Origin: an uncultured Bacteroidales bacterium
GTDB lineage: Bacteria; Bacteroidota; Bacteroidia; Bacteroidales; VadinHA17
Length of the DNA: 64,000 bases
Assembly (NCBI GenBank): GCA_963736675.1
Contig: CAVTPT010000002.1
Location: 160,358-224,357 of the forward strand
Reading direction: 5' to 3'
Each line of letters starts with the position of its first letter. Position 1 is the stretch's first letter. Below are positions 128 through 49,810 of the stretch, piece by piece. The notes below the pieces were generated by a model. That model worked only from the letters and a program-made list of their open reading frames with translations, had not been told where the DNA came from and ran no database searches. A program made the translations under genes and the position numbers.

Positions 128-445
128 ATGAGAACAGCAATAACCAGTACGGGAAATTCTATCGGGAGCAAACTTGACCAGCGCTTCGGACGTTGTCTTT
201 ACTTTGTGATTTTTGATGATGAGACAGGCAGCACGGAATTTATTCCCAATCCGAACAAGGAAGCACTTGAAGGAGCGGGCCCGGCATCAGTACAGCTTGT
301 TGCTTCGCGCAATGTGAATAAAATCATCTCAGGAGAATTCGGGATCAAGATCAAGTCATTGCTCGAAAGTCTGAATATTCAGATGATTGTTTTAAAAGAA
401 CCTGAAAAGAGCATCGGAGAGATTATTCTAATGTTGAAAAATTAA
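128..445 (+). CDS. NifX/NifB-type (dinitrogenase Fe-Mo cofactor family, COG1433-like) small protein, Orp-like
   Basis: 105-aa ORF. N-terminal pattern (FGRCLYFVIFD) and size are typical of the NifX_NifB family. It lies next to MinD/ferredoxin ATPases, as in Orp clusters. Confidence 0.75.
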   Translation: MRTAITSTGNSIGSKLDQRFGRCLYFVIFDDETGSTEFIPNPNKEALEGAGPASVQLVASRNVNKIISGEFGIKIKSLLESLNIQMIVLKEPEKSIGEIILMLKN

Positions 446-457
446 ATAACGATCATT

Positions 458-640
458 ATGCCAAAAATGAATGGGACAGGGCCTGATGGGAAAGGACCGA
501 AAACAGGAAGAGCACTGGGAAAGTGCATAAAAAATACACCCGAAGAACTGGAAACCAAACTTGGAAAAGGACTTGGTAAGCGCTGGAATGCAGGAGGTGG
601 TACCGGTGAAGGTAAGAGAAACAGAAGTGGTTCAAAATAA
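458..640 (+). CDS. DUF5320 family small Gly/Lys-rich protein
   Basis: 60-aa ORF starting MPKMNGTGPDGKGPKTGRALGKC, matching the characteristic DUF5320 N-terminus (MPxxDGTGPxGxGPxTGRGxGxC). Typical genomic partner of NifX-like genes. Confidence 0.6.
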   Translation: MPKMNGTGPDGKGPKTGRALGKCIKNTPEELETKLGKGLGKRWNAGGGTGEGKRNRSGSK

Positions 641-660
641 TATTTAAACAGAATTTTTTA

Positions 661-720
661 TGAAACGAGCATGTTCGTTACAAACAAAAACACGGGTGAA
701 TATTCACATGCGAGTTACAT
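661..720. repeat. conserved hairpin element, copy A (TGAAAC-stem-CA[AG]ACA[AC]AAACACG loop-stem-GTTACAT)
   Basis: Stem 664-674 (aacgagcatgt) pairs with 706-716 (acatgcgagtt), with 2 internal mismatches. The loop carries acaaacaaaaacacg. Related to copies B, C and D. Confidence 0.5.
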
Positions 721-749
721 CCGGCCTTAAAAATTAAATAATATTCGGA

Positions 750-813
750 TGAAACCCACATGTATTGCAGACACAAACACGTATGTATATAATCTTCAGA
801 CATGTGGGTTACA
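750..813. repeat. conserved hairpin element, copy B
   Basis: 750-763 (tgaaacccacatgt) pairs with 800-813 (acatgtgggttaca) at 13 of 14 positions. The loop contains cagacacaaacacg. Confidence 0.6.
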
Positions 814-843
814 TCAGACCATTAAAATAAAAATTATATACTG

Positions 844-1182
844 ATGAAAAAACGTATCGCAATCCCGTTGGAAAACGGGATATTATGTTCTCATTTTGGT
901 CATTGTCAGCAATTTGCAATCCTTGATGCCGATAATAAAACAATTACAAATGAAATCCTGATCACCCCTCCTCCGCACGAGCCGGGTCTTTTGCCCGCAT
1001 GGCTGGCTGAAAAAGGAGTGACAGATGTAATAGCAGGCGGTATGGGACAAAGAGCTATTAACCTGTTCAACGGCCAGAAGATAAATGTATTTGTCGGGGC
1101 ACAACCTAAAGCTCCCAGGGAACTAGCAAATGAATTATTAAACGATTCACTGGCAGCAGGAGCAAATTGTTGTGATCATTAG
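844..1182 (+). CDS. NifX/NifB-type (COG1433-like) protein, Orp-like
   Basis: 112-aa ORF. HFGHCQQFAI and VIAGGMGQRA motifs are typical of the dinitrogenase FeMo-cofactor-binding family. Confidence 0.8.
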   Translation: MKKRIAIPLENGILCSHFGHCQQFAILDADNKTITNEILITPPPHEPGLLPAWLAEKGVTDVIAGGMGQRAINLFNGQKINVFVGAQPKAPRELANELLNDSLAAGANCCDH

Positions 1183-1193
1183 ATTTAACCGGG

Positions 1194-2069
1194 ATGATTT
1201 CAGATTACCGCTGTTTTTTTTGTTTTACCAGAGCATTTGAGAAACTACTTGTAAAAGAGGATGTCCCACTCCAAGCCAAAAACAGCTTTACCAATGAAAT
1301 GATAAGTCTGTATCATAATAACCGTGAAAGACTTACCGCCCCTGAATTTGCAAGGGCATTACATAATATTCTGAAAGTCTATACGCGGAATCACGACCCC
1401 TACAGGAATGAAAAAAAAGAGAGCAATGATGAAGCGCTCGGTATGATCCCACAGTTAAAAAAAATAATTGAAAGTTCTGCTGATCCATTCAACTGTGCTC
1501 TCAGGCTGGCAATAGCCGGGAATATTATCGACTTTGCAGCGAATGATGATTTTAACCTTAAGGCCACTATTGACAGGGCGCTTAAGGATGAATTTGCAAT
1601 CGATCATTCCGCGCAACTAAAGGAGGCCCTCAGCAAAGCTGAAAATATTTTATACCTGGGAGACAATGCCGGCGAGATCGTGTTTGACAAGTTGTTTATT
1701 GATACTCTCGGCCACCCGGGGATCACTTATGCTGTAAGAGGGGCTCCGGTTATTAATGATGCCACAATGGAAGATGCACTGTATACAGGAATGCAAAGCT
1801 CGGCAAGGGTAATTTCCAACGGTTATGATGCCCCGTCAACCATAGTTGGAAAATCTGCAGCTGAGTTCCGTGAATATTTTGACAGTGCTGATCTTATAAT
1901 CTCAAAAGGACAGGGTAATCTTGAAGGACTGATTGACGGGAATGACAGCCGTATCTTTTATCTGCTCATGGTAAAATGCGATGTTATTGCAGAATTACTG
2001 AATGTAAGGAAAGAGAGCCTTGTTGTGTTTAATACGGCTGAAGAACAGATGCGGCACGACAGGGATTAA
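1194..2069 (+). CDS. DUF89 (ARMT1-like damage-control phosphatase) family protein
   Basis: 291-aa ORF with GDNAGEIVFD and ISKGQGN motifs characteristic of DUF89. Confidence 0.7.
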   Translation: MISDYRCFFCFTRAFEKLLVKEDVPLQAKNSFTNEMISLYHNNRERLTAPEFARALHNILKVYTRNHDPYRNEKKESNDEALGMIPQLKKIIESSADPFNCALRLAIAGNIIDFAANDDFNLKATIDRALKDEFAIDHSAQLKEALSKAENILYLGDNAGEIVFDKLFIDTLGHPGITYAVRGAPVINDATMEDALYTGMQSSARVISNGYDAPSTIVGKSAAEFREYFDSADLIISKGQGNLEGLIDGNDSRIFYLLMVKCDVIAELLNVRKESLVVFNTAEEQMRHDRD

Positions 2070-2081
2070 AAGAGATGCAAA

Positions 2082-3008
2082 ATGAGGAACAGGAAAAGTA
2101 CTTTTAATTATCTGATTTACAATAATATGTTCAGGATTGCAATAGCCAGCGGAAAAGGCGGGACAGGTAAAACTTTTGTTGCTACAAATATTTTTTCAAC
2201 ACTGATAAAACAGAATATCAGCAGCTTATTAATTGACTGTGACGCCGAGGCTCCGAATTCGGTCGCATTTTTTGATGCGGTACAGGTCAGTAAATCAGAT
2301 GTTGCTCACCTGGTACCGGTTATAGACACCAATGTATGCACTTTTTGCGGGAGATGCCATGAATATTGCAGTTACAACGCAATTTTTATCCTGCCACATG
2401 TCAGGATAATCAGCGTTATTGAGGACCTCTGTCATGGTTGCGGAGCCTGCTCCGTTGCCTGTGAGGAGGGAGCCATTTCTGAAAAATCCAATTCTCTCGG
2501 ACAGGTTATATCCTACTCAATCAATGGTAGTGAACCTGTAATTTTTGAGGCAAGGATGAATATTGGTGTCATGTCGCCGGTAAACATTATCAAGGCGGCA
2601 ATAAGACAGGCCGGTACAGAAAAGGATATCGCAATTCTTGATTCACCTCCGGGTACATCGTGTCCTTTTATCCAGACGGTGGCAACAGCCGATTATACAA
2701 TACTGGTAACAGAACCGACTCCGTTCGGACTAAGTGATCTAAGGCAAAGTGTTGAAACACTACGCGAAATGAATAAATTGTTCGGCGTTATTATAAACCG
2801 GGCCGGATCAGGCAATGAAGATGTTAATGAGTATCTCGGGAAAGAAAATATCCCGCTGCTTCTTGAGATCCCTTTTAAAAAAGAGATCGCTTCAATTTAC
2901 TCGACAGGCAACCTGGTCTGTGATACCGATCCATTGTTATCAAAACAACTAACCGAAGTAATAAGTAACATTATATTACTACATGGAAATAGCAATAATC
3001 AGCGGTAA
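2082..3008 (+). CDS. MinD/ParA-superfamily P-loop ATPase with inserted 4Fe-4S ferredoxin domain (COG1149-like, Orp DVU2103/2104-like)
   Basis: Walker A SGKGGTGKT plus two CxxCxxCxxxC clusters (CTFCGRCHEYC, CHGCGACSVAC). The likely true start is the ATG at 2127 (MFRIAIASGKGG). Confidence 0.8.
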   Translation: MRNRKSTFNYLIYNNMFRIAIASGKGGTGKTFVATNIFSTLIKQNISSLLIDCDAEAPNSVAFFDAVQVSKSDVAHLVPVIDTNVCTFCGRCHEYCSYNAIFILPHVRIISVIEDLCHGCGACSVACEEGAISEKSNSLGQVISYSINGSEPVIFEARMNIGVMSPVNIIKAAIRQAGTEKDIAILDSPPGTSCPFIQTVATADYTILVTEPTPFGLSDLRQSVETLREMNKLFGVIINRAGSGNEDVNEYLGKENIPLLLEIPFKKEIASIYSTGNLVCDTDPLLSKQLTEVISNIILLHGNSNNQR

Positions 3009-3849
3009 GGGAGGAACCGGTAAATCAAGCCTCTGCGCAGTATTTGCAACTCTTGACGGAAATGTTGTACTTGCTGATTGTGACGTGGATGCAGCTAACC
3101 TGTTTCTGATCTTTGAACCTACTCATGAGGAAGAAAAGGCATATGTCGCAGGCCATAAGGCTGTTATCGATTACACTCTCTGTACAAATTGTACAAGATG
3201 TATTGATTATTGCCGCTTTGATGCAATTTCACTTTTTGAAGGATCGGTTACAATATCTGAAATTTCGTGCGACGGATGCTTCCTTTGTTCCCGCATATGC
3301 CCTGAGAAAGCTATTGCGATGAAACCAAACAACAGGAGCAGAATGTATTCAGGGAACTTCAGAAATGGCAAAATAGTTTATGGACGCCTTGCTCCCGGTG
3401 AAGAAAACAGCGGGAAACTTGTCAGTATGGTCCGGGAAAAATCGAGGGAAGTGGCCGAAAAAAATGGGCTGGACACAATAATTATTGATGGTCCTCCCGG
3501 GATAGGATGCCCTGTAATATCGACTATTACAGGAGTTGATAAGGTTGTGATTGTTACTGAACCAACTATCTCGGGCCTGCACGACCTCCGGAGAAGCCTT
3601 GAAGTTGTTGGTAAATTTGACCTGACATCCACGGTAATAATAAACAAAACGGATATTAACGTACCTGTCAGTAAGGCTATTGAAGAGTATTGTGAATCTA
3701 TCGGGATTAAGGTTGCTGGTAAACTACCTTTCGAACCCCTTATTACAAAGGCCATGATTTCAAAAATGAGCATAAACGAGTTAGATAACACATTGATTAT
3801 AAGTAGAGAAATCCAAAAAATATGGAGTATAATTTTAACAGATAAATGA
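2983..3849 (+). CDS. second MinD/ParA-superfamily ATPase with 4Fe-4S ferredoxin domain
   Basis: Walker A SGKGGTGKS plus CTNCTRCIDYC and CDGCFLCSRIC. Overlaps the previous gene by 26 nt. Confidence 0.8.
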   Translation: MEIAIISGKGGTGKSSLCAVFATLDGNVVLADCDVDAANLFLIFEPTHEEEKAYVAGHKAVIDYTLCTNCTRCIDYCRFDAISLFEGSVTISEISCDGCFLCSRICPEKAIAMKPNNRSRMYSGNFRNGKIVYGRLAPGEENSGKLVSMVREKSREVAEKNGLDTIIIDGPPGIGCPVISTITGVDKVVIVTEPTISGLHDLRRSLEVVGKFDLTSTVIINKTDINVPVSKAIEEYCESIGIKVAGKLPFEPLITKAMISKMSINELDNTLIISREIQKIWSIILTDK

Positions 3850-4652
3850 TTATGGAAAATGTATTTGAAAAGATCCCCATGGAAGGGGTAAAGAATATTA
3901 TTGTTGTTGCATCAGGCAAAGGCGGAGTCGGGAAATCGACAGTTGCGGCTAACCTGGCAATAGCAATGGCACGAAACGGCTATCGCACCGCACTCGTAGA
4001 TGCTGATATCTTTGGTCCTTCAATACCTAAGATGTTCGGTATTGAAGATGCCCGACCCGATGTCTCAGCTATCGGCGATAAAGAGATGATATTTCCGATC
4101 ATAAAATACGGGGTAAAAATAATCTCTATTGGATTCTTCATCGACCAGAGCCAGAGTCTTATATGGCGGGGTCCTATGGCAGCTAAAGCCCTGACCCAGC
4201 TTTTTGAGAACACTCAGTGGGGCGATATAGATTATATGATAATCGATTTCCCTCCCGGAACAAGCGATATCCAGCTCACTTCTGTCCAGAAACTGAATAT
4301 CACCGGAGCTATCATTGTGACCACTCCCCAGGAGATTGCAATCAATGATGCACGAAAAGCAGCATCCATGTTCATGAATCCTGACCTGAAAGTCCCTATT
4401 TTAGGAATAATTGAGAATATGTCGTGGTTCACTCCCGATAATCATCCCGACGAGGCTTACTATGTTTTCGGTAAGGGAGGCGGACTCAAACTGGCAAAAG
4501 AATTTGATACAAAGCTCCTTGGCCAGATCCCCCTCGTGCTTGAAGTCGGAGAGGCTGCTGAACATGGACTCAGTATTTTCAGCCAGAAAAATAAACTTGT
4601 GGTAACTGCCTTTGAAAAAATTTCAGAACAAATTATTTCAAAACAGGAATAA
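3846..4652 (+). CDS. Mrp/NBP35 (ApbC-type) iron-sulfur cluster carrier ATPase
   Basis: VASGKGGVGKST Walker A, DxPPGT motif (IIDFPPGTSD) and ENMS motif (GIIENMSWF). 4-nt overlap with the upstream gene. Confidence 0.85.
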   Translation: MIMENVFEKIPMEGVKNIIVVASGKGGVGKSTVAANLAIAMARNGYRTALVDADIFGPSIPKMFGIEDARPDVSAIGDKEMIFPIIKYGVKIISIGFFIDQSQSLIWRGPMAAKALTQLFENTQWGDIDYMIIDFPPGTSDIQLTSVQKLNITGAIIVTTPQEIAINDARKAASMFMNPDLKVPILGIIENMSWFTPDNHPDEAYYVFGKGGGLKLAKEFDTKLLGQIPLVLEVGEAAEHGLSIFSQKNKLVVTAFEKISEQIISKQE

Positions 4653-4682
4653 AATATTACTTTTACACTAAATCGTGTTACG

Positions 4683-5084
4683 ATGAGTGTCGTCCGTTTC
4701 AGTGTAAGTCTTGAAGAGGAATTATTAAACGAGCTTGATCTGTTTGCTAATGATAACAGTTTTGCAAACAGATCGCAGGCTTTAAGAAACCTTATAGAGA
4801 AGAATATAGTTGAGAAAAAATGGCACTGCAACAACCTTGTTGCCGGTGCCATTATTATGATATTTGACCATCATAAGAAAGATATAATATCCCGGTCAAA
4901 TGATATCCAGCACGATTATTACGATGTCATCCTCTCCTCACAGCATTTTCACCTGAGTCATAACATATGCCTCGAGATTATTGCCGTTAAGGGATTGGCC
5001 AAACGGCTGACCGAATTATCTGAAAAGCTGATAAGCATTAAAGGGATCAGGCATGGGAAACTTGCTATGAGCAAAACCGACTAA
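4683..5084 (+). CDS. nikR: nickel-responsive regulator NikR (ribbon-helix-helix + ACT-like metal-binding domain)
   Basis: N-terminal RHH (VRFSVSLEEELLNELD...NRSQALRNLI). C-terminal HFHLSHNIC reproduces the HxH-x5-C high-affinity Ni site spacing of E. coli NikR. Confidence 0.75.
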   Translation: MSVVRFSVSLEEELLNELDLFANDNSFANRSQALRNLIEKNIVEKKWHCNNLVAGAIIMIFDHHKKDIISRSNDIQHDYYDVILSSQHFHLSHNICLEIIAVKGLAKRLTELSEKLISIKGIRHGKLAMSKTD

Positions 5085-5138
5085 AAAAAATTTAAAATAT
5101 AAGTAACACTATTTTTATTATTCGTAATACTTTCAACA

Positions 5139-6971
5139 ATGATTAAACATTTTACCTTACTTGCCTGCTTAGCCACCCTGACCATAAATGGAATTTCTCA
5201 GGAAGATATCAGGAGCATTTTACAGGATACCGTTAATCTCGATGAAGTTGTAGTAACAGGAACCACAGTAAGAGTGAACAGGAGTAATATACCTATGGCA
5301 GTCACGGTGGTTAACACAAGACAGATAAATGAGAGTATTGAAACTGCTTTGCTTCCGGTACTGAACGGAAGGGTACCCGGATTATTTGTGACAGAGCGAG
5401 GGATTATGGGTTTCGGCGTTTCGGCAGGTGCCGCGGGCCAGATTTCGATAAGGGGCATAGGTGGCAGCCCTACAACGGGCGTTCTGATGCTGATCGATGG
5501 GCATCCTCAGTTCATGGGCATATTCGGGCATCCTCTGCCCGATTCTTATGTAGCGTCCGATGTGGAAAAAGTAGAAGTCATCCGTGGTCCGGCATCAATC
5601 CTTTACGGATCGAATGCGATGGGGGGAGTTATTAATATTATCACCAAAAAGCAGAAAGAGGAGGGTTTACATGGGAACACTCATATTTTGTATGGTTCGT
5701 ATAACACACAGAAATACATGGCATCGGCAGGATATAAGAAGAATAACTTCAGCGCATTTGCTTCGGTCAATCATGATCAGACAGACGGACATCGGAGTAA
5801 TTCCGATTTTAAAATAACAAACGGTTATGTCAAGATTGGATATGCGATAAGCAATAATCTGGATGTCAGCGCCGATTTCAGCCTTGCACATTTCAATGCA
5901 CAGGATCCGGGACCCGATACAGTCAATGCCAATCCCGGATACAATCTGGATGTTACGAGAGGATACTGGTCGCTTACTATGAATAATAATTACGCAAAAT
6001 ATTCAGGAACCGTAAAACTTTTCTACAATTTCGGCGAGCACAAAATATCTGACGGATTTCATTCAAATGATAATAATTATGGTGTAAATATTTTTGAAAC
6101 TGTCCGTCTTTTCAAAGGAAATACAGTGACCCTCGGCGCCGATTATCTTTTATACGGGGGGAAAGCTGACAATGAGCTCTACGGAACATTTATTACCGAT
6201 ACATCAATCTATGATGCAGGAGTATACGGATTTATGCAACAGACTCTTTTTAAAAAGCTGACACTAAATGCCGGTCTCCGCATGCAAAATCATCAGACTT
6301 ATGGAACAGAATGGATACCTGCCGGTGGATTTGCCTGGAAAATAGCCGGGAACACTACCTGGAAAACATCTGTTGCCAAAGGATTCCGTTCACCTACAAT
6401 AAGGGAACTCTTTATCTGGAACCACAACGTAAATCTTAAACCTGAAAGGATTCTAAACTACGAAACAGGAATAATGCAATCGTTTGTGCAGAATAAAATC
6501 AGACTTGAACTGACCGGGTTCATCGTTTCCGGAGAAGATATGATAATTACTGTTCCGATGCAGGGACTGCAGAATGCCGGTGAGATCCATAATAAAGGGA
6601 TAGAATTCTCGGCCAATACAAATGTTACGGAAAACCTTTCATTTAACCTTACTTATTCATATACTCATATGAAAAACACGGTTTATGCCACACCAAGGCA
6701 TAATATCTTTGCAAGCTGCGATTACACCTGGAAAAAGCTTCAGACCATGATAAGCATCCAGCATATTGATCGTCTCGATACTGATCCCCTGGCAGGTAAT
6801 GAAAAATTTGAAACATATACACTGCTAAACTCAAAAATATCGTACAAACTTATGAAATGGGGCGAGTTGTTTATCAGTGCTGAGAACATCCTGAACCAGC
6901 AATACGAAAATAACGTCTATTACCCGATGCCCGGGATCACCCTGTTTGGCGGAATAAAAATGAGATTCTGA
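5139..6971 (+). CDS. TonB-dependent outer-membrane receptor (small, 610 aa; candidate metal/Ni-Co transporter)
   Basis: Signal peptide, plug motifs (VVVTGT..., IEVIRGPASILYGSNAMGGVINIITK) and a terminal aromatic (MRF). Lies directly downstream of nikR. Confidence 0.85.
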   Translation: MIKHFTLLACLATLTINGISQEDIRSILQDTVNLDEVVVTGTTVRVNRSNIPMAVTVVNTRQINESIETALLPVLNGRVPGLFVTERGIMGFGVSAGAAGQISIRGIGGSPTTGVLMLIDGHPQFMGIFGHPLPDSYVASDVEKVEVIRGPASILYGSNAMGGVINIITKKQKEEGLHGNTHILYGSYNTQKYMASAGYKKNNFSAFASVNHDQTDGHRSNSDFKITNGYVKIGYAISNNLDVSADFSLAHFNAQDPGPDTVNANPGYNLDVTRGYWSLTMNNNYAKYSGTVKLFYNFGEHKISDGFHSNDNNYGVNIFETVRLFKGNTVTLGADYLLYGGKADNELYGTFITDTSIYDAGVYGFMQQTLFKKLTLNAGLRMQNHQTYGTEWIPAGGFAWKIAGNTTWKTSVAKGFRSPTIRELFIWNHNVNLKPERILNYETGIMQSFVQNKIRLELTGFIVSGEDMIITVPMQGLQNAGEIHNKGIEFSANTNVTENLSFNLTYSYTHMKNTVYATPRHNIFASCDYTWKKLQTMISIQHIDRLDTDPLAGNEKFETYTLLNSKISYKLMKWGELFISAENILNQQYENNVYYPMPGITLFGGIKMRF

Positions 6972-9248: not shown

Positions 9249-9321
9249 CGGCCCGTAGCTCAGCTGGCAGAGCACGTGACTCTTAATCATGGGGTCGAGG
9301 GTTCGATTCCCTCCGGGCCGA
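9249..9321 (+). tRNA. tRNA-Lys (anticodon CTT)
   Basis: Hand-folded cloverleaf. Acceptor cggcccg/cgggccg, D-arm gctc/gagc, anticodon stem cgtga/tcatg with loop ctCTTaa, T-arm gaggg-ttcgatt-ccctc, discriminator A. Confidence 0.9.
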
Positions 9322-9349: not shown

Positions 9350-9758
9350 ATTGCTTATAATCACGCTAATTATCACAGTGTGGTTCGACTCTTTTCCGGG
9401 GTTACCACGCGCAATGGAAAATGAGTTAGTTAACATCAATAAATTAAGAGAATTAGTGAAATGTGACTTTAGTAAGTTTCTGGAAGTATAGGTTAGATGT
9501 TCTTAATTTATCTTATTTTTCTTTACTTTCTTTTGCTTCTCCAAAAGAAAGTAACAAAGTAAAGGAGCCCGGAAAAACCAACCCCACCCTTTTTTACGCC
9601 CGCTACACGTGGCTTCCCGCTACAAAAAAGGGTGTGGTTCGCACCTTTTCCGGTTTTACCCCCCGCATTACAAAATGATTTAGTTTACATCAACAAATGT
9701 GGTATCTATGAAATTCTTAAAGCCCTGGATATCTAACTTTTGTCTTTTGTCTTTCTTC

Positions 9759-9848
9759 GCCTCACCCCTTCCCGCGTTCGCGGGATTGAGTCGCTTCGCT
9801 CCTCAACACGCCTCAAGCCTCACGCCTTTTTCAGCCTCACGGCTTCTT
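9759..9848. repeat. REP-like element copy (core CCTTCCCGCGTTCGCGGGATTGAGTCGCTTCGCTCCTCAAC + CCTCACGCC-rich tail)
   Basis: Shares its core and tail with the copies at 11434, 11827, 13592 and 46050-46171 (the last in reverse orientation). Abuts the stop of the 9848-11149 gene. Confidence 0.7.
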
Positions 9849-11149
9849 CATTTAAATGTCACAAACATCAATACAGTATTATCAAAGTCATTTAGTTTAT
9901 CAGCCAGTTCTTCCAATTGTTTCTTTTTTTCAGGGAATTTTGGAGTATTGTTCTTAAAATCATCACTTGCAACATGTGCCTTAAGTTCATTTGCCGGCAC
10001 CCACATAACCATTGTTGAATCGTTGACCATTTTATCTGGCCTGAACCTTGGCCCGGCATCAATATCATTATAAAGACCGGTTGTAAACATAAAATTATCT
10101 GTGCTGGTTGGTTTACTGAATACAAAATCACCGGTTTTTTTATTATACACACCCAATACATTTGTTGTACTATACCAGATTTTATATCCTCCGGGCAGAG
10201 GGGCAAATGGCGTAAGCCTTTTTGCGGGAAAACGACTCCCAAAAGAACAATCAACAAAAAGATAATCATCAGTTTGATTAACTGCTTTAACAAAAAAATA
10301 ATCCATCCGGTAATTTTCCATTTTTTTTGACCTTTCAGAATCAGGCAATTTAAATTTACCAAGATTCAGGACATACTTTGGAATTAATTCATACTTATGA
10401 TTTAAAATGAATAAAGTGTCATTAAAGATTTCTTTGAAATAAAACTCGTTATTATATGTGTGAAAACACGCATCAAAAGTTGTAACCTTTACACTTCCGG
10501 TATTTGTAACGAATTTAATATAATTTACATATTTATGTTTTATTTCGCCCGATCGATTAATAATAAGGGCATTGTAATCGACTTGCCCATTAGCATTCGG
10601 AACATACCCTAAAAACAATGAATCATCCACAAGAAAAACCTGATCCATATAATATTGATTATCAACATTAAAAAACCCATTGTTTTTATCTATAAATGTT
10701 CCATCAATAGAATACTCATAAAGATCACCAAGCTGTTTTAAAAAGATTTTTCTATCTTTTGTTATCCCAATAATATAAGCTAATTGATACTCACCAGGAC
10801 CTCTGCCAATACTGCCTATATTTCTTATATATTTTCCGGAAGTATCATATAAAGTCAATATCAGATTTCCATGAATAAGCATATAATTGTCTAAAAAATC
10901 AGCATTATAAATAAATGTAAAAGGCTCACTGCCTTCAGATTGTAACGGCACATAATGTATATTATCTGTAAACTGACTTAAATTAACCACCTCCATTTTA
11001 TCTGCATTTGCTTCAAGATCAATGGAAATAATCTGGTTTCCAGTTTTTATCCCGTTTTTACAACCCAACGTTAAAAGCAAAATAATAAAACTAATATTTA
11101 ATATCCTCATATTAAGTGTGTTAGCTATATTAAAATAATAATTTGGCAT
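9848..11149 (-). CDS. 6-bladed beta-propeller lipoprotein (DUF5128/BF3164-like), paralog 1
   Basis: The lipobox LLLTLGCKN follows the internal Met, so the likely start is 11110. Length, composition and C-terminal motif (...DNTVLMFVTFK) parallel the paralog at 11914-13218. Confidence 0.65.
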   Translation of the reverse strand: MPNYYFNIANTLNMRILNISFIILLLTLGCKNGIKTGNQIISIDLEANADKMEVVNLSQFTDNIHYVPLQSEGSEPFTFIYNADFLDNYMLIHGNLILTLYDTSGKYIRNIGSIGRGPGEYQLAYIIGITKDRKIFLKQLGDLYEYSIDGTFIDKNNGFFNVDNQYYMDQVFLVDDSLFLGYVPNANGQVDYNALIINRSGEIKHKYVNYIKFVTNTGSVKVTTFDACFHTYNNEFYFKEIFNDTLFILNHKYELIPKYVLNLGKFKLPDSERSKKMENYRMDYFFVKAVNQTDDYLFVDCSFGSRFPAKRLTPFAPLPGGYKIWYSTTNVLGVYNKKTGDFVFSKPTSTDNFMFTTGLYNDIDAGPRFRPDKMVNDSTMVMWVPANELKAHVASDDFKNNTPKFPEKKKQLEELADKLNDFDNTVLMFVTFK

Positions 11150-11433
11150 AATAAGCAGAACTTAAATAAGATCGGTCACCCTTATTGATTTATCTTTCGC
11201 ATGTTACTGATTAGTCTCTCTTTTGCCGCAGTAGCAGAAAACGATTAGAAATAAGATCAATATTCCTGTTCTCATTATTAGAAGATTGATTTTTACTCAA
11301 TAACTCGCAGAACTGATCCGTAATTTACGAAGCTTTTTAATAATACGCTTAGGTATTTAGTTGTTTTATTAATTTCTCATGATAAATTATCCGGACATTC
11401 AGGTCCTGGTCTATGAGTTTCTTTACCCTCATA

Positions 11434-11474
11434 CCTTCCCGCATTCGCGGGATTGAGTCACTTCGTTCCTCAAC
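11434..11474. repeat. REP-like element core copy
   Basis: ccttcccgcattcgcgggattgagtcacttcgttcctcaac; hairpin cccgc-attc-gcggg. Confidence 0.7.
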
Positions 11475-11519
11475 TGCCAACTGCTAACTAAATGTACCCT
11501 CATGCCTCACGCCTCCTTT

Positions 11520-11735
11520 CCAAGGTTCCAAGGTTCCGGGGTTCCAATGTTCCAAGGTTCCAAGGTTCCAGGGTTTCAAGGTTCCAGGGTTCCAAGGTTC
11601 CAGGGTTCCAGGGTTCCAAGGTTCCAGGGTTCCAAGGTTCCAGGGTTCCAGGGTTCCAAGGTTCCAGGGTTCCAAGGTTCCAGGGTTCCAGGGTTCCAAG
11701 GTTCCAGGGTTCCAAGGTTCCAGGGTTCCAAGGTT
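11520..11735. repeat. tandem 8-bp repeat array (CCARGGTT) x27, with a 40-bp higher-order pattern
   Basis: Direct reading gives 27 contiguous 8-mers. The A/G position follows a repeating g-a-g-g-a pattern. The ORFs translated from it (GTLEPWN..., FQGSKVP...) are artefacts. Confidence 0.95.
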
Positions 11736-11751
11736 ATTCATATACAAGTAG

Positions 11752-11785
11752 TTCTTCAACTCTGGAACTCTGGAACTCTGGAACT
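11752..11785. repeat. inverted partner array (CTGGAACT) x3 of the 8-bp repeat, after the 16-nt spacer attcatatacaagtag
   Basis: The reverse complement AGTTCCAG matches the GGTTCCAG register of the left array at 7 of 8 positions. The same architecture occurs at 13405-13550. Confidence 0.85.
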
Positions 11786-11810
11786 TTACTGTCAACTACC
11801 AACTATATGT

Positions 11811-11909
11811 ACACTCACTCCTCACGCCTTCCCGAGTTCTCGGGATTAAGTCGCTTCACTCCTCAACACGCCTCATGCCTCACGCCTTTTTCAGCCTCAC
11901 TCCTTCTTG
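11811..11909. repeat. REP-like element copy (CCTTCCCGAGTTCTCGGGATTAAGTCGCTTCACTCCTCAAC + tail)
   Basis: Near-identical to the 13581-13680 copy. Its hairpin is cccga-gttc-tcggg. Abuts the stop of the 11914-13218 gene. Confidence 0.75.
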
Positions 11910-11913
11910 AAAG

Positions 11914-13218
11914 TTATTCTTTGGGGGTTACCATTACGAGAACCGGATTATCAGTCTCTTTAAGGGACCCGGCAAGTTTTTTGAGCTCGTCTTTCTTTTT
12001 TGGATCCTTCACCCTGGCTTTCTTAAAATCTTCGCTGGAAACATATTTTTTTAGTGTGTTAACATCACTAAATGAAAAGAATTTGCCATCACTACAATAT
12101 AAATTCCAAAAATCTATTCTCATACTGAAATCAGGGCCACCACTCAAATCATCTTTTAGTATATTCTTTGGTATTTTAACAGGAATACCGGCTATAGTCT
12201 CAGAGATCATTTCAACATCCAGTTTATATTTCCTATTTGTCCTTTTGTCGAAGAACATGTTTTTTATTGGAATACTACTATTTCGTGTTTTTTTTGTACC
12301 ATATGAATAGAAAACATACCGTGTTGTCTCAAATATGTCAACAATAAAGCTTGTATGATCGTATGGTATATCCGGGTTGCCTCTCATTTCGGGTGTGAAT
12401 AGAGTCCCATGTGTATTAAAAATCATTCGTGGTTTAAAAAAATTGTCTTTTGTCCCGACACAGAAAACAGTATCACTGAATTTTTCCATAAAGCAAACCA
12501 TATTACTAACGGAATAAACAAGCATATCATTTAATGCCTGGGAATTTCTTCCGCTAACCTTCTTGTACTTATAACAATTTGGTTTAAAATGAATTGTATC
12601 ACCTACGACATTTATCAATAAACTTAAAGTCGGCTCGGTCCCTCTCCATGGTGGTATTGCTAAAAATGCATTGTCTGTGGCAGGAACCATACTTACTCTC
12701 CATGGAGCTGGGTCTTTTAATGCTATTGATCTCTGGAAAGTAAACCCCGTATCAGAAATCTCATATACCAATAATTTGCGATTTAAGCTTGAAAGGATTG
12801 TCAGAATTTTATTATCAGAACTGACAGCAAAATCAGTAATGAACGAGTATTCTTCCGGACCTCTTCCTCTATTCTGAAGCTTAAATAGAAATTTGCCATC
12901 AATATCGAAGCACATTATCACACTCCCAAGCCCCCCACTGGTTTCAATATAAAATCTTTTACCTATGCTAATAAATTTCTGTATATTACTGCCTATCAAT
13001 GCGTTCTGCGATGTCTGTAATGGTATATACTCAACATTTGTAGCAATCTCAGATAAATTTTTAATTATGGTCTCCGTTTCTGAAAGTAGGTCGATTCCAA
13101 GAACCTGATCGATATTAGTTTGTTCATTAGTATTTGTCCTTCCACAGGAGCAAAGGAAGATTAGAAGAATGGGTAATATTGTTATTTTCATGATTACAAA
13201 ATTGATCTTCAACATCAT
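11914..13218 (-). CDS. 6-bladed beta-propeller lipoprotein (DUF5128/BF3164-like), paralog 2
   Basis: Lipobox LIFLCSCGR; the likely start is the internal MKITIL near 13191. Colinear similarity to paralog 1 (e.g. GRGPEEY vs GRGPGEY; the C-terminal ...DNPVLVMVTPKE). Confidence 0.65.
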   Translation of the reverse strand: MMLKINFVIMKITILPILLIFLCSCGRTNTNEQTNIDQVLGIDLLSETETIIKNLSEIATNVEYIPLQTSQNALIGSNIQKFISIGKRFYIETSGGLGSVIMCFDIDGKFLFKLQNRGRGPEEYSFITDFAVSSDNKILTILSSLNRKLLVYEISDTGFTFQRSIALKDPAPWRVSMVPATDNAFLAIPPWRGTEPTLSLLINVVGDTIHFKPNCYKYKKVSGRNSQALNDMLVYSVSNMVCFMEKFSDTVFCVGTKDNFFKPRMIFNTHGTLFTPEMRGNPDIPYDHTSFIVDIFETTRYVFYSYGTKKTRNSSIPIKNMFFDKRTNRKYKLDVEMISETIAGIPVKIPKNILKDDLSGGPDFSMRIDFWNLYCSDGKFFSFSDVNTLKKYVSSEDFKKARVKDPKKKDELKKLAGSLKETDNPVLVMVTPKE

Positions 13219-13404
13219 TTCGCAGAAATGATCTGTAATTTACGAAGTTTTTTAATAATATGCTTAATTATTTAGTTGTTTCTATTACCAAAAGCAGTAC
13301 CTCATTTTACCTTTCGCAGAATTGAGTCACTTCGTAGCTAAAACTACCTACTTTCCAACTGCCTCCTGCCTACTATATGTACCCTCACTCCTAACGCCTC
13401 CTTT

Positions 13405-13550
13405 TAAAGGTTCCAAGGTTCCAAGGTTCCAGGGTTCCAAGGTTATTCATATACAAGTAGGTTTTCAACTTTGGAACTCTGAAACTCTGGAACTCTGGAA
13501 CTCTGAAACTCTGGAACTCTGGAACTCTGGAACCCTGGAACTCTGGAACT
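13405..13550. repeat. second copy of the inverted 8-bp repeat structure: (CCARGGTT) x5, 16-nt spacer, (CTGRAACT) x10
   Basis: The spacer attcatatacaagtag (13445-13460) is identical to 11736-11751. Arm copy numbers differ from locus 1 (27 and 3 there, 5 and 10 here). Confidence 0.9.
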
Positions 13551-13591
13551 TTACTGCCAACTACCAACTATATGTACACTCACTCCTCACG

Positions 13592-13700
13592 CCTTCCCGA
13601 GTTCTCGGGATTAAGTCGCTTCGCTCCTCAACACGCCTCATGCCTCACGCCTTTTTCAGCCTCACGCCTTCTTCCGCCGAAGCTTCGGCGAAGGTGGGAT
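13592..13700. repeat. REP-like element copy followed by a 14-bp perfect palindrome GCCGAAGCTTCGGC
   Basis: Core ccttcccgagttctcgggattaagtcgcttcgctcctcaac, then the CCTCACGCC tail, then an extended hairpin around gccgaagcttcggc. Confidence 0.75.
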
Positions 13701-13769: not shown

Positions 13770-14158
13770 TGAGAATCATTATTACTTAATAATGATTATT
13801 ACCTGATTTTGATTCTCAGATAATAATAGTTCTTAAATAATAACGATTATCAAACAGTAATGATCCCTGGCAGGGACCTATTATCAAATAGTAATGATTC
13901 TCAAATAACAATAGTTCTTATATAGTAAGATTTATCAAACAGTAAAGATCCCTGGAAAGGACCGATTATCAAATAGTAATGATTCTCAAATAACAATAGT
14001 TCTTATATAGTAAGATTTATCAGACAGAAATGACCACAGGGAGGGACCGATTATCAAATAGTAATGATTCTCAGATAACAATAGTTCTTATATAGTAATA
14101 TTTATCAGATAGTAACGATTATCAAATAACAACAATTCCTAAATAGTAATGATTATTA
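13770..14158. promoter_or_regulatory. array of Fur-family 7-1-7-type boxes upstream of the Fur/PerR-family gene
   Basis: TGAGAATCATTATTA at 13770-13784. TAGTAATGATTCTCA at 13889-13903, 13974-13988 and 14059-14073, and TAGTAATGATTATTA at 14144-14158 (reverse complements TGAGAATCATTACTA and TAATAATCATTACTA). Each matches TGATAATnATTATCA with 2-4 mismatches. At least 11 ATTATCA[AG]A / ATTTATCA[AG]A motifs occur through 14280. Confidence 0.55.
13796..14135. repeat. 85-bp tandem repeat, about 4 copies (AT-rich, each copy with a GC-containing mini-palindrome tccctg-g-caggga or a degenerate form)
   Basis: The anchor ttatcaaatagtaatgattctca recurs at 13881, 13966 and 14051, an exact 85-bp period. 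The flanking copies are diverged. Confidence 0.85.
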
Positions 14159-14308
14159 AATAATAACTATTCTTAAATAATAACGATTATCAAATAGTAA
14201 CTATTTACCCTTAATTTCAATTAGCTAACATTAACAATTATCAAACATTACCGATTTTCAAACAAATTCCATTATCAAATATTTTCCCTACCCCGACAAC
14301 AAGTACCC

Positions 14309-14737
14309 ATGGCAAACAAAACAGTGATCCGGATCCTGACAGAAAATAAACTCAAAGTAACTCCCCAGAGAGCGGCTATCCTCGAAGTATTACTCAGCCT
14401 GAAAAACCACCCCACAGCAGAAGATATTATTAACTACCTGCGAATTAGTTACCCCGCTATATCCCTAGCTACCGTCTACAAAAGCCTCGACCTGTTCGTC
14501 TCAAAAAGAATTATTGAAAAAATAAATACCTCCGGCGATATCATGAGATACGATACCTTCAAGGATCCACACCACCATCTTTATTGCTCCGACTCCGACC
14601 AGATAAGCGATTTCTACGATGAGAAAATCAATGAGATCCTAGAAAACCATTTCAGTAAAAACCCAATACCCGGTTTCAACATTGAAGATATTAAACTTCA
14701 GATCATCGGCAGATTTAAGGATAAACAAACCAAATAA
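14309..14737 (+). CDS. Fur family transcriptional regulator (PerR-like by context)
   Basis: LKVTPQRAAILEVL winged-helix start and HHHLYC metal-site motif. Followed by ferritin-like and peroxiredoxin genes. Confidence 0.85.
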   Translation: MANKTVIRILTENKLKVTPQRAAILEVLLSLKNHPTAEDIINYLRISYPAISLATVYKSLDLFVSKRIIEKINTSGDIMRYDTFKDPHHHLYCSDSDQISDFYDEKINEILENHFSKNPIPGFNIEDIKLQIIGRFKDKQTK

Positions 14738-14743
14738 TTGTCT

Positions 14744-14790
14744 TGAACCCACATGTTTTATTAAATATAAACAAGAATGAAATCAGTTAC
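14744..14790. repeat. degenerate copy (D) of the TGAAAC...GTTAC hairpin element
   Basis: tgaacccacatgt ... cagttac retains the 5' arm and the terminal GTTAC but lacks the 3' acatgtggg arm. Confidence 0.3.
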
Positions 14791-17690: not shown

Positions 17691-18083
17691 ATGGAAATTA
17701 CCTTTGACGGCGGTAAAATCATTACTGCCCACTTAAATGATCATATTATAACTACCGACCAGCCTGTGGAAGGCGGAGGCTCCAATTCAGCACCGGCTCC
17801 TTTCGATCTGTACCTGGCATCAATTGGAACATGTGCCGGAATATATGTCAAATCATTCTGTGACAACCGGAAAATTTCTGCTGATAATATTAAAATAATT
17901 CAGACTACTTCATTCAGTAAGGAGACAGGCCTTCCGGTTAATATTAAGCTGGACATAAAATTGCCATCCGATTTCCCGGAGAAGTACAGAGCACCTGTAA
18001 TAAATGTGGCTGAACTATGTAAAGTTAAAAAATCGATCCATAATCCGCCCCGGTTTGAAATTATCACCTCACAAGCTGAATAA
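17691..18083 (+). CDS. OsmC family protein
   Basis: APAPFDLYLASIGTCAGIYV motif. Size is typical of the family. Confidence 0.7.
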   Translation: MEITFDGGKIITAHLNDHIITTDQPVEGGGSNSAPAPFDLYLASIGTCAGIYVKSFCDNRKISADNIKIIQTTSFSKETGLPVNIKLDIKLPSDFPEKYRAPVINVAELCKVKKSIHNPPRFEIITSQAE

Positions 18084-46027: not shown

Positions 46028-46049
46028 ATGGGGAGCACTTGAGTTTGAG

Positions 46050-46184
46050 GTAGAGCTTGAGATAGAAAGTGTTGAGGAACGAAGTGACGAAATCCCGCGA
46101 ATGCGGGAAGGTAGAGCTTGAGATAGAAAGTGTTGAGGAACGAAGTGACGAAATCCCGCGAATGCGGGAAGGTTAAGGTTGAGA
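46050..46184. repeat. 61-bp tandem repeat x2 (+ partial third), each unit containing a reverse-oriented REP-like core
   Basis: gtagagcttgagatagaaagtgttgaggaacgaagtgacgaaatcccgcgaatgcgggaag occurs at 46050-46110 and again, identical, at 46111-46171. Confidence 0.9.
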
Positions 46185-47927: not shown

Positions 47928-48199
47928 TACAGATAATTTATGGATTATTTACAAATCTACCTATTTAACAGTTCAAAAGAAACAAATGTTCATAATTACC
48001 ATCTCACTTTATTGCTTTGTCTGAAAATGCAGAAATGAACCACAGTTCGTTCTTTGCGTCACAGTCAGTTCAATAAATGATGCCATGATTTTATAAAACG
48101 GGAGGCCGGAATTTTTATTTTGTGTATCTTTAAGAATTGAACCTGACGGATATCTTAACAGAATTATCCCAGCGCTTAACCAGGAATTTTTTATGTTAC

Positions 48200-48291
48200 G
48201 GAATCCACATGTTATTTCAGACACAAACACGAATAAGTATTATTTACAGCCGGGCCCTGGCGAGCCCGCCGGGGTCACACATGTGTAATCC
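48200..48291. repeat. conserved hairpin element, copy C (with a GC-rich insertion in the loop)
   Basis: 48200-48212 (ggaatccacatgt) pairs with 48279-48291 (acatgtgtaatcc). The loop begins with the conserved cagacacaaacacg and contains an extra cgggc...gcccg mini-hairpin. Confidence 0.5.
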
Positions 48292-48340
48292 CTATGCTTA
48301 TGCGGGACAGCTGTGATACCTTTAATATCAAAACTATATT

Positions 48341-49810
48341 ATGATGAAAAAACTTAAAATTCTGTCGAAAGTTGCATTTCTGCTTTCACTGATGCTGTTT
48401 TTTTCAGATTGTGCAATAAATCCGGTAACAGGGAAAAAGCAGTTAATGCTTATGTCGGAAGAACAGGAAGTTGCCATGGGGCTTCAGTACGATCCTCAGG
48501 TCATTGCTACCTTCGGGGAGTATAAAAAGGATGACCTTCAACGTTTTCTTCAGCAGAAAGGTAATGAGATGGGGTTGATCTCTCATCGGTCAAAGCTTCA
48601 ATACCATGTAAAAATCCTTGACTCCCCTGTTGTCAACGCTTTTGCTGTTCCCGGAGGTTATATTTACCTTACCCGGGGAATTCTGGCTCAGCTCAATAAT
48701 GAAGCTGAGATGCTGGGTGTCCTGGGGCATGAGATGGGTCATATTACTGCCCGCCATTCGGTAAGCCAGCAAAGCAAGCAGCAGCTGGGAACCCTGATAC
48801 TGATAGGAGGGCTTATTGTCTCAAAAGATTTACAGCAGTATGCCGATTATGCAATGCAGGGAATGCAGCTGCTGTTTCTTAAATTCAGCCGCGACGATGA
48901 GGTTCAGGCCGACCGGCTTGGTGTTGAATACTCTTCAAAAGTAGGTTATGATGCACATAAGATGGCTGACTTCTTCCAGGTCCTGAATAAAATGAATATG
49001 GCCAGCGAACAGGCTGGCGTCCCTACTTTCCTTTCAACCCATCCCGATCCGGGCGATCGTTACAATACAGTAAACCAGAGAGCAACAGAATGGCAACAAA
49101 AACTACAGCTGCCCGAATACAAAGTTAATGCTGACAGCTATCTTCAGATGATTGACGGCATTGTGTACGGAGAGGATCCCAGGCAGGGTTTTATAGAGAA
49201 CAATGTATTTTATCACCCTGACCTTCAGTTCAGATTCTCATATCCGGGCGGATGGCAGCTCGAAAACCAGCCTGCCCAGGTAAGAATGGCTCCTACCGAC
49301 GGAAAGGCTCTTATGATATTCACCCTTGCTTCAGGCAATTCACTTGAGGAAGCAGCCCAAAGTACAATTGATCAGCTTGGGATCACTGTTCAGGAAAGCA
49401 AAAAAACGACTGTTAACGGGATGCCGGCAATAGCAGCTATTTCGACACAGGTCTCACAGGATCAGTCAACAGGTGCCCAGCAGACAATACGTGTCCTCTC
49501 CTACTTCATAAGCTATAATAAAAACTATTTTGTTTTCCACGGGCTCTCTTCCGATGCTGACTTTAACAGCTATTCCCGGCTCTTTGAATCATCAATGACA
49601 ACTTTCTCAAAGCTGACCGACCCTTCAAAACTGAATGTAAAACAGAAGAGGATAATTGTAAGAAAAGTTCAGAAAACTGGAACACTGGCAAATGCTTTCA
49701 CCTATTACAGGGTACCCCAGGGTATAATGGCTGAAATGGCCCTTCTCAACAATCTGGAACTTACCGATCAGGTACCGGCAGGTAAACTGATAAAAGTTGT
49801 CGGGGAATAA
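48341..49810 (+). CDS. M48 family zinc metalloprotease (lipoprotein)
   Basis: HEMGH zinc motif (GVLGHEMGHITARH). Lipobox FFSDC. Confidence 0.85.
   Translation: MMKKLKILSKVAFLLSLMLFFSDCAINPVTGKKQLMLMSEEQEVAMGLQYDPQVIATFGEYKKDDLQRFLQQKGNEMGLISHRSKLQYHVKILDSPVVNAFAVPGGYIYLTRGILAQLNNEAEMLGVLGHEMGHITARHSVSQQSKQQLGTLILIGGLIVSKDLQQYADYAMQGMQLLFLKFSRDDEVQADRLGVEYSSKVGYDAHKMADFFQVLNKMNMASEQAGVPTFLSTHPDPGDRYNTVNQRATEWQQKLQLPEYKVNADSYLQMIDGIVYGEDPRQGFIENNVFYHPDLQFRFSYPGGWQLENQPAQVRMAPTDGKALMIFTLASGNSLEEAAQSTIDQLGITVQESKKTTVNGMPAIAAISTQVSQDQSTGAQQTIRVLSYFISYNKNYFVFHGLSSDADFNSYSRLFESSMTTFSKLTDPSKLNVKQKRIIVRKVQKTGTLANAFTYYRVPQGIMAEMALLNNLELTDQVPAGKLIKVVGE

Follow-up and report, generated by a model that had tools for sequence, protein, structure and literature searches.

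In a 64,000-nt stretch of contig CAVTPT010000002.1 (positions 160,358–224,357; GenBank assembly GCA_963736675.1) from an uncultured Bacteroidales bacterium of the VadinHA17 lineage, hereafter the window, two adjacent hairpins (A and B) lie between a DUF5320 gene and a NifX-like gene (PF02579; 844–1182), and a third hairpin (C) lies upstream of an M48 peptidase gene (48344–49810). The hairpins and the two genes behind them are on the + strand. The original prediction, which was made from the sequence letters, described the hairpins as a conserved motif and offered three options for it: a cis-regulatory RNA, a palindromic protein-binding site, or a MITE (miniature inverted-repeat transposable element). 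Comparison with related genomes indicates that the hairpins belong to longer repeat units, which are bracketed by ATGAAA, mostly stand at the start codons of genes and are probably copies of a mobile DNA element.

All units share one plan, which consists of an ATGAAAC-stem, a CA-rich loop, a stem-GTTNCAT, an AT-rich tail of ~30 nt and then the next ATGAAA. Units of the family are short, at about 89–100 nt. The complete units in the window span 89–146 nt and are described here with the strands of three helices (P1, P2 and P3). Unit A (A-type; 660–748, 89 nt; nhmmer score 61.7 bits) opens with its left ATGAAA at 660–665. Its P1 arms are at 660–674 and 706–720, the loop motif at 681–694, and the P2 strands at 698–704 and, in the tail, 740–746; P3 is formed by CATCCG (718–723) and CGGATG (746–751), which extends into unit B. 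Unit B (B-type; 749–843, 95 nt; 95.1 bits) starts with ATGAAA at 749–754 and has P1 arms at 749–763 and 800–814, the loop motif at 768–781, P2 strands at 785–793 and, in the tail, 833–841, and P3 strands CATCAG (812–817) and CTGATG (841–846), the latter taking in the ATG of the gene. The right-hand repeat of unit B is codons 1–2 of the NifX-like gene (ATGAAA, 844–849). Unit C (48198–48343, 146 nt; 32.0 bits) is a degenerate B-type copy, in which ACGGAA now stands where the 5´ repeat ATGAAA has decayed. It contains P1 arms at 48198–48212 and 48279–48291, the loop motif at 48218–48231, two insertions (a GC-rich hairpin in the loop at 48249–48274 and a second at 48292–48314) and a tail at 48315–48343, and its right-hand repeat is the ATGAAA start of the M48 peptidase gene (48344–48349). 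All of these units and their parts are on the + strand.

The hairpins A, B and C are real, and their sequences and stems match the earlier description. Their common loop motif, CARACAMAAACACG, occurs exactly three times in the window (at 681, 768 and 48218), each time on the + strand, and the GC-rich mini-hairpin reported within the loop of copy C is present. The claim that A and B differ in a pairing-preserving manner is also borne out: position 10 is an A-T pair in B and a G-C pair in A, and two C-G pairs of B correspond to tandem G.A/A.G in A. The coordinates first given were too short for the units: they left out the initial A of ATGAAAC and the conserved tail of ~30 nt. Repeat finding (families D16 and D17) showed that the similarity of B and C runs on to the ATG of the downstream genes, and the repeating unit became visible because a related locus, L009, whose NifX protein is 98% identical, carries the two hairpins in the reverse order. 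The palindrome CACATGT-N-ACATGTG occurs once in the window compared with no occurrence in 100 shuffles, and the hairpin of unit B folds with –25.5 kcal/mol (z = –4.3 versus shuffled sequences), while A and C alone fold less distinctly.

The fourth, degenerate hairpin proposed at 14744–14790 did not hold up. It shares only AACCCACATGTTTT (14746–14759, + strand; unscored) with the 5´ arm, being identical there to that of one subfamily, and has no 3´ arm; its fold is unremarkable (z = +0.66), the profile search misses it and its local alignment score lies inside the shuffle range. The fragment may be a remnant of an element copy. It is the sole arm fragment in the window and sits just 3´ of a Fur-family gene. 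In a relative (CAZXSW01, locus L004), a decayed copy without the terminal ATGAAA (17954–18049) is located ~125 nt upstream of a Fur-family gene.

To characterize the family, one genome per species was scanned with a pattern that fixed only the inner stem and the loop motif and left the flanks free. The scan yielded 64 stretches, of which three, L041 (Lachnospiraceae), L046 and L080 (Chthonomonadia), were set aside as chance matches; the rest are Bacteroidales-type metagenome-assembled genomes (MAGs), including uncultured Rikenellaceae, and Prolixibacteraceae MAGs. L046, from a Bacteroidia MAG, contains at ~2250–2390 a series of differing palindromes of the form GGGACAnnACATGTnnTGTCCC, a separate repeat family with an ACATGT core. 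The unit was found in 24 Bacteroidales or Prolixibacteraceae assemblies; complete or nearly complete genomes with it include OY781961.1 (5.6 Mb), JAXGLU010000001.1 (3.36 Mb) and the CAVOWZ01 contigs. In addition, a profile built from full units detected 101 non-overlapping copies in the stretches. Single assemblies hold at least 44, 16, 9 and 4 copies, near-identical copies occur within one genome, and every assembly has its own consensus variant, which fits amplification from a genome-specific master copy. The copies form 52 singles, 17 doublets and 5 triplets, with subfamilies often mixed within an array, and several short contigs start or stop inside a copy. The element has multiplied inside genomes and accumulates in tandem arrays of different subfamilies. 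Plasmid and phage collections gave no match to the unit consensus; nine viral contigs matched the 5´ half of the motif, none with a 3´ arm, and were discarded as chance matches.

Although the scan pattern contained no flanks, every unit opens with (A/G/T)TGAAAC and precedes an ATGAAA. ATGAAA also stands at the left of every first unit, with the exception of rare decayed ones, and the orientation of the units is fixed relative to the hexamer. Of the 66 distinct arrays that have a terminal ATG, 60 terminate precisely on the start ATG of an open reading frame (ORF), which is closed and at least 70 aa long in 51 cases and runs off the locus in nine. The remaining six comprise an array cut by the locus end (L019), an array whose locus ends 24 nt past its ATGAAA (L065), and four arrays at an intergenic ATGAAA, three of them at most 124–172 nt before a gene and one beside a convergent gene. 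Gene starts account for 9% of all other ATGAAA in the same DNA and for 28% of those outside crude gene calls, so that the enrichment of arrays at gene starts has a binomial p of about 1e-26. All 12 A-type copies from Prolixibacteraceae assemblies stand at the start of an ORF, and in nine of ten arrays a co-directional gene has its Met-Lys start at the right-hand ATGAAA. Together, the 49 proteins encoded downstream match 69 Pfam families, without a common theme; they include pyrH-like/amino-acid kinases, histidinol dehydrogenase, class II aldolase, sulfatases, SusD, KdpC and peptidases, and many are housekeeping proteins. Because the downstream genes show no theme, a ligand-specific regulon is excluded.

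The orthologous sites of relatives are empty. At the NifX site of L004 to L008 (87% identity), the DUF5320 stop codon lies 3–17 nt from the NifX ATG, too short a distance to hold a hairpin. Without the element the sequence is ...AAAT|ATGAAA|AAACGT, compared with ATGAAA-[A]-ATGAAA-[B]-ATGAAA-AAACGT in the window. At the M48 site, no copy is present in any of 21 orthologous loci that include the gene start (57–86% identity), and the profile found nothing in the full set of 28 loci that the scan returned. The insertions at the two window sites are therefore lineage-specific and lie at the gene's ATGAAA, and since the element-free relatives have a single ATGAAA there, which is the gene's start, the element entered at or beside the start codon. 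In L009 (1–575), B comes before A, the tail behind the A hairpin is of the B type and a gene other than DUF5320 lies upstream, which points to recombination between units and rearrangement at the site. L001 to L003 have a second DUF5320 gene or a different long palindrome at the position of A and B. In L002, an unrelated palindromic element of ~165 nt (GTTAAGAGGGTGTTTCAAAAGTCA ... TGACTTTTGAGACACCCTCTTAAC; ~9803–9970) occupies the same spot as A and B, and the intergenic position upstream of NifX seems prone to acquiring hairpin repeats.

Three helices are predicted from aligning 60 distinct units that carry no large insertion. P1 (nt 1–15) pairs ATGAAACCCACATGT with ACATGTGGGTTNCAT, with 93–94% of cells paired. 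The left, orphaned ATG falls within P1, whose position 4 is a conserved mismatch and whose position 10 reads A-U in 43 units and G-C in another 14. In P2, the AT-rich tail pairs with the 3´ part of the P1 loop; the helix ends 2 nt before the ATG of the gene and is 83% paired; one of its pairs is U-A in 27 units and A-U in 15, and its strands vary by subfamily (GTATATAATTTT/AAAATTATATAC, GAATAT/ATATTC, TATAATAAT/ATTATTATA and GAATAATTTT/AAAATTATTC). P3, which pairs CATCAG with CTGATG and takes in the gene's ATG, is 97% paired. One P3 pair is A-U in 45 units, C-G in 12 and U-A in one, another is G-C in 41 and U-A in 14, and the trinucleotide pairs CAG/CTG, CCG/CGG, CAT/ATG and CCT/AGG are all represented; in about 55 of 69 units, the trinucleotide that follows CAT matches the one that precedes the unit's terminal ATG. 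As P2 joins the loop of P1 to that of P3, a pseudoknot-like fold results. Both the left and the right ATG are possible pairing partners for the CAT of the 3´ arm. None of 500 shuffles reached the covariation score of 0.128 (0.065 in shuffles), and sliding the partners by 1–3 columns lowers pairing to 27–49%. The original prediction had allowed that covariation might fail to be significant beyond phylogeny; the helices do covary beyond shuffles, though the changes follow few subfamilies. P3 is present in the minimum-free-energy fold, and the predicted unpaired probability of the gene's AUG is 0.17 with the element and 0.43 at other ATGAAA starts (p = 3.6e-6).

We consider it likely, with a probability of roughly three in four, that the hairpins are copies of a non-autonomous mobile DNA element that has ATGAAA as its target and no terminal inverted repeats. 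Of the three options originally offered, the MITE is the closest. The element shares with MITEs a small size, the lack of coding capacity, a multi-copy occurrence and presence or absence between relatives, and dozens of copies with apparent flanking duplications, which had been named as the mark of a plain MITE, do occur in related genomes. The random locations expected with them do not, as 91% of the arrays adjoin the start codon of a gene. Nor is it a classical MITE, because terminal inverted repeats are absent: the inverted repeat is 5´-terminal and internal, and the last ~30 nt (ACCATTAAAATAAAAATTATATACTG) have no inverted match at the 5´ end.

Several points weigh against a mobile element. 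The copy counts are minimum values, taken from 8-kb stretches that surround exact matches to the pattern, and all of the sequences come from MAGs. Clustering of 381 ORFs near the copies (~8 kb) revealed no transposase, recombinase or RAYT-like multi-copy neighbour, the sole three-member cluster being GFO/IDH/MocA oxidoreductases, and no longer, autonomous relative of the element was seen in the examined stretches of ~8 kb. As ATGAAA brackets every unit and is single at empty sites, a target-site duplication and an insertion beside an existing ATGAAA look alike; the hexamer is always identical, which suggests that it may be a recognition or core site rather than a duplication from staggered cuts. 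Because the compensatory changes follow a handful of subfamilies, the independent covariation events are few, and P2 is made of A-T pairs only. Finally, the start-codon bias exceeds what ATGAAA targeting and purging of intragenic insertions predict with crude gene calls, so that some additional preference or benefit would be needed.

The most serious rival is a structured mRNA leader, such as a translational switch, a thermometer or a protein-binding site, that was selected as such and spread only secondarily, with P3 and P2 masking the start and the preceding 14 nt until they are opened. Such a leader would account for the constant mRNA orientation directly 5´ of the start codon, for the three covarying helices and the mostly paired AUG in the predicted fold, and for the CA-rich loop motif being the best conserved unpaired segment across subfamilies. 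However, neither this leader nor a cis-regulatory RNA as the primary identity, as originally suggested, agrees well with the empty orthologous sites of near relatives at the NifX and M48 loci (57–87% protein identity), with downstream genes that are unrelated in function and often housekeeping, with near-identical copies per genome and genome-specific variants, or with tandem arrays of two or three units. The absence of a recognisable riboswitch or sRNA family noted at the outset was confirmed: Rfam at gathering thresholds found only a tRNA in the whole window, and the best matches at a permissive E-value in 400–1100 were microRNA and Leptospira sRNA models (E ≥ 1.1), none of them credible. 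We regard the leader as unlikely. Two further RNA candidates were dismissed. A RAGATH-1 hammerhead match (E = 8.7) is not credible and was probably set off by CTGATGAAA, and CUGAUGA as part of a hammerhead or a C/D box is followed by no stem II then GAAA and has no model match.

Promoter consensus sequences in Bacteroides and Flavobacterium consist of a –33 TTG and, after about 20 nt, a –7 TAnnTTTG. The B-type loop contains aTTG-N20-TAATTTTc and one subfamily TTTG-N22-TAATTTTG, so that the unit might be a mobile promoter whose outward activity drives the gene behind and thereby lets copies persist before genes, with transcription starting just past the TAATTTTC of the loop. Repeated upstream regions before unrelated genes have already been described (PMC3575422). 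But the A-type loops lack a comparable –7 box, a sigma-70 scan of 600–900 gave nothing above chance in the + strand loop, and units A and B lie inside an operon that has upstream promoters already, all of which makes this explanation improbable. An invertible promoter was rejected, as the loop keeps one orientation versus the tail throughout the ~100 copies and just ~35 nt separate the arms. It is more doubtful still that the unit is a small protein gene of 30–31 codons (e.g. MKPTCIADTNTYVYNFQTCGFHQTIKIKIIY) with a stop codon overlapping the next ATG and translational coupling. The frame is open from the left ATG to a TGA overlapping the right ATG in 51 of 74 distinct units, but a 30-codon open frame arises by chance in about 1 in 10 cases in AT-rich DNA (a rough estimate), and the other 23 units have early stops, with one entire subfamily ending after 6 codons. 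Furthermore, variation by codon position is 0.073/0.056/0.075, without a third-position excess, the unit period is 2, 1 or 0 modulo 3, the internal insertions measure 17, 20, 21 or 24 nt, and A-type and B-type are alike at the nucleotide rather than the amino-acid level. The palindromic hexamer ACATGT in the arms and the NikR and Fur-family regulators encoded nearby could suggest an operator for a dimeric DNA-binding protein with two ACATGT-containing half-sites, which would be the palindromic protein-binding site originally considered. The arms, however, change in a compensatory manner instead of conserving their sequence, the half-sites are separated by 35–70 bp, with insertions that vary, the asymmetric unit always has the orientation of the gene, and dozens of copies stand 5´ of unrelated genes; we give an operator almost no weight. 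An integron attC site, a hairpin with RYYYAAC and GTTRRRY cores that follows cassette ORFs next to an integron integrase, was also set aside, since only AAC...GTT is shared, the dispersed copies precede unrelated core genes and no integrase is nearby.

If the units are mobile elements, the moving enzyme would act in trans, because no transposase adjoins the copies. The conservation of the fold, the constant orientation and the identical hexamers at either side would fit a putative enzyme that reads a folded single strand. Both ATGAAA copies pair with GTTNCAT(CAG), which may serve as a guide in the manner of IS200/IS605 insertion sequences (IS); alternatively, it could lengthen P1 to 18 bp over the joined ends of an excised circle, a junction that would read ...ATATACTG|ATGAAACCC..., the same junction that tandem arrays yield. 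Either pairing would account for the invariant target. Given that the element is mobile, movement as a folded single strand is a tentative proposal, for which we see appreciably less than an even chance. After insertion, the element would supply its own AT-rich leader, from which the gene would be translated, with the old start locked inside P1 and the new start partly masked by P3 and P2. Bacteroidota start translation without Shine-Dalgarno pairing, which the AT-rich tail would suit. The predicted masking of the AUG makes a damping or a conditional control of translation possible. Taken together, a self-targeting scheme can be envisaged, in which GTTNCAT(CAG) pairs with ATGAAA at the target and at the right end, and an enzyme acting on single-stranded DNA pastes the unit onto Met-Lys starts, where it persists by providing a replacement leader and start while the old one is locked. 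This full scheme is speculative, and we would put the odds well against it.

Among known systems, IS200/IS605 elements usually have a 4–5-nt target and have two subterminal hairpins, guide pairing and a single-strand 'peel and paste' mechanism. The unit resembles the miniature elements derived from them (PATEs) in lacking terminal inverted repeats and in its one-strand hairpin, and it likewise inserts beside a fixed short sequence in one orientation. Its internal stretch at the hairpin foot covaries with the end and the target (base of P1, and P3), which recalls the pairing of guide and cleavage site. In contrast, the target of the unit would be 6 nt (ATGAAA) rather than the usual 4–5 nt, the same hexamer is present at the left flank and the right end, and one large hairpin containing the target replaces the two separate subterminal hairpins. 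No Y1 (HUH) transposase has been linked to the unit in the 8-kb neighbourhoods of the copies. P1 occupies the left end of the unit, and in P3 the right end covaries and pairs with the CATCAG beside the P1 foot. The ends of the IS608 type have another geometry.

REP and REPIN sequences, which are mobilised by RAYT, are similar in being short non-coding palindromic repeats with tens of copies per genome, genome-specific populations, compensatory stem changes and an enzyme presumed to act in trans. However, REPs are 20–40 nt long, have a conserved 5´ GTAG-type tetranucleotide and are mostly located after genes or between convergent ones, whereas the unit is ~95 nt long, has a long asymmetric, non-palindromic tail and sits on start codons. 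Correia (Neisseria), ERIC, BOX and RUP repeats of ~100–150 nt also form hairpins, are co-transcribed with their neighbours and can alter expression, but Correia has terminal inverted repeats and a TA duplication and no tie to start codons. To our knowledge, none of these four has been reported to provide the start codon and leader of the following gene. Rickettsia palindromic elements (RPEs) are likewise small palindromic repeats tolerated at gene boundaries or inside genes. RPE insertions are tolerated because the reading frame is kept; RPEs lie inside coding sequence and are translated, whereas the unit is not part of the protein and shows no conservation of its internal frame. Some repeats of the Correia, ERIC, BOX and RUP kind carry promoters (PMC3575422). 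Putative mobile promoters, highly similar sequences directly upstream of unrelated genes, were found within genomes and across genera and families by Matus-Garcia, Nijveen and van Passel in 2012 (PMC3575422). That survey covered –150 to –50 and left the element ends, targets and structures undefined (PMC3575422), whereas the unit has defined ends, the ATGAAA repeat and a three-helix fold. A literature search for the sequence, or for repeats or MITEs bound to start codons in Bacteroidetes, found no description, with incomplete coverage.

As a selfish repeat the element is ordinary; what sets it apart is its target, the absence of terminal repeats, the leader and start that it would supply to a gene and its covarying fold. 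Small bacterial repeats are mostly found after genes. If the self-targeting scheme is true, the unit would be a start-codon-homing, leader-swapping element and represent a type of target selection new to bacterial mobile DNA, as well as a natural source of portable translation-initiation cassettes for Bacteroidota; if the guide pairing is true, the choice of target could be read from the element sequence and perhaps changed. With the leader replaced before dozens of unrelated genes, including housekeeping genes, how expression persists without Shine-Dalgarno pairing becomes a question, as does which enzyme could recognise ATGAAA at gene starts. For annotation, the units should be masked as repeats and not be taken for leader peptides, riboswitch candidates or extended N-termini. 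They also break MAG assemblies and mark rearrangement points, such as L009, where the unit order and the upstream gene differ from those of the window.

A GC-rich mini-hairpin of 17–24 nt is inserted in many copies at one fixed point, between GGGTT and CATCAG. The insert is CTCCCGCTTAGGCGGGACAGGCT in L019, L027, L049, L050 and L056, CTGCCGACAGGCAG in L053, L057 and L079, and GCCTTCGGC...CCCTTCGGGG in L039, and unit C of the window has its two (in the loop and at 48292–48314). Identical insert sequences recur across copies and genomes, as if they were a second, tinier insertion family.

Units A and B lie within a gene cluster (128–6971) that encodes a NifX-like protein, DUF5320, a second NifX-like protein, ARMT1/DUF89, two MinD/CooC-like ATPases (4Fe-4S), Mrp/NUBPL, NikR and a TonB-dependent receptor. 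The relatives L001–L008 share the cluster and add DUF134 5´ of it, beyond the window start, and the clusters of some relatives also include a radical SAM protein and a CGGC-domain protein. The cluster is probably a nickel- or metal-cofactor-related operon.

Other repeats are also present in the window. Directly upstream of the Fur-family gene (14309–14737), a tandem array with periods of 17, 51, 85 and 170 nt and a consensus of about ATTATCAAATAGTAATGATTCTCAAATAAC spans 13810–14287; its unit, with some 20 repeats, resembles an iron-box-type operator. Past a tRNA gene (9249–9321), the region 9693–13680 contains two paralogous lipoprotein-like genes of 433–434 aa on the minus strand (9848–11149 and 11914–13218). 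Upstream of each lie octamer tandem repeats, namely (AAGGTTCC)n and (AACTCTGG)n (11478–11795 and 13399–13554), together with shared 150-nt modules; this region may be phase-variable. A perfect 61-nt tandem duplication at 46048–46169 contains the GC hairpin TCCCGCGAATGCGGGA and is the reverse complement of a repeat family at 9760, 11427, 11820 and 13585 (families D6 and D9).

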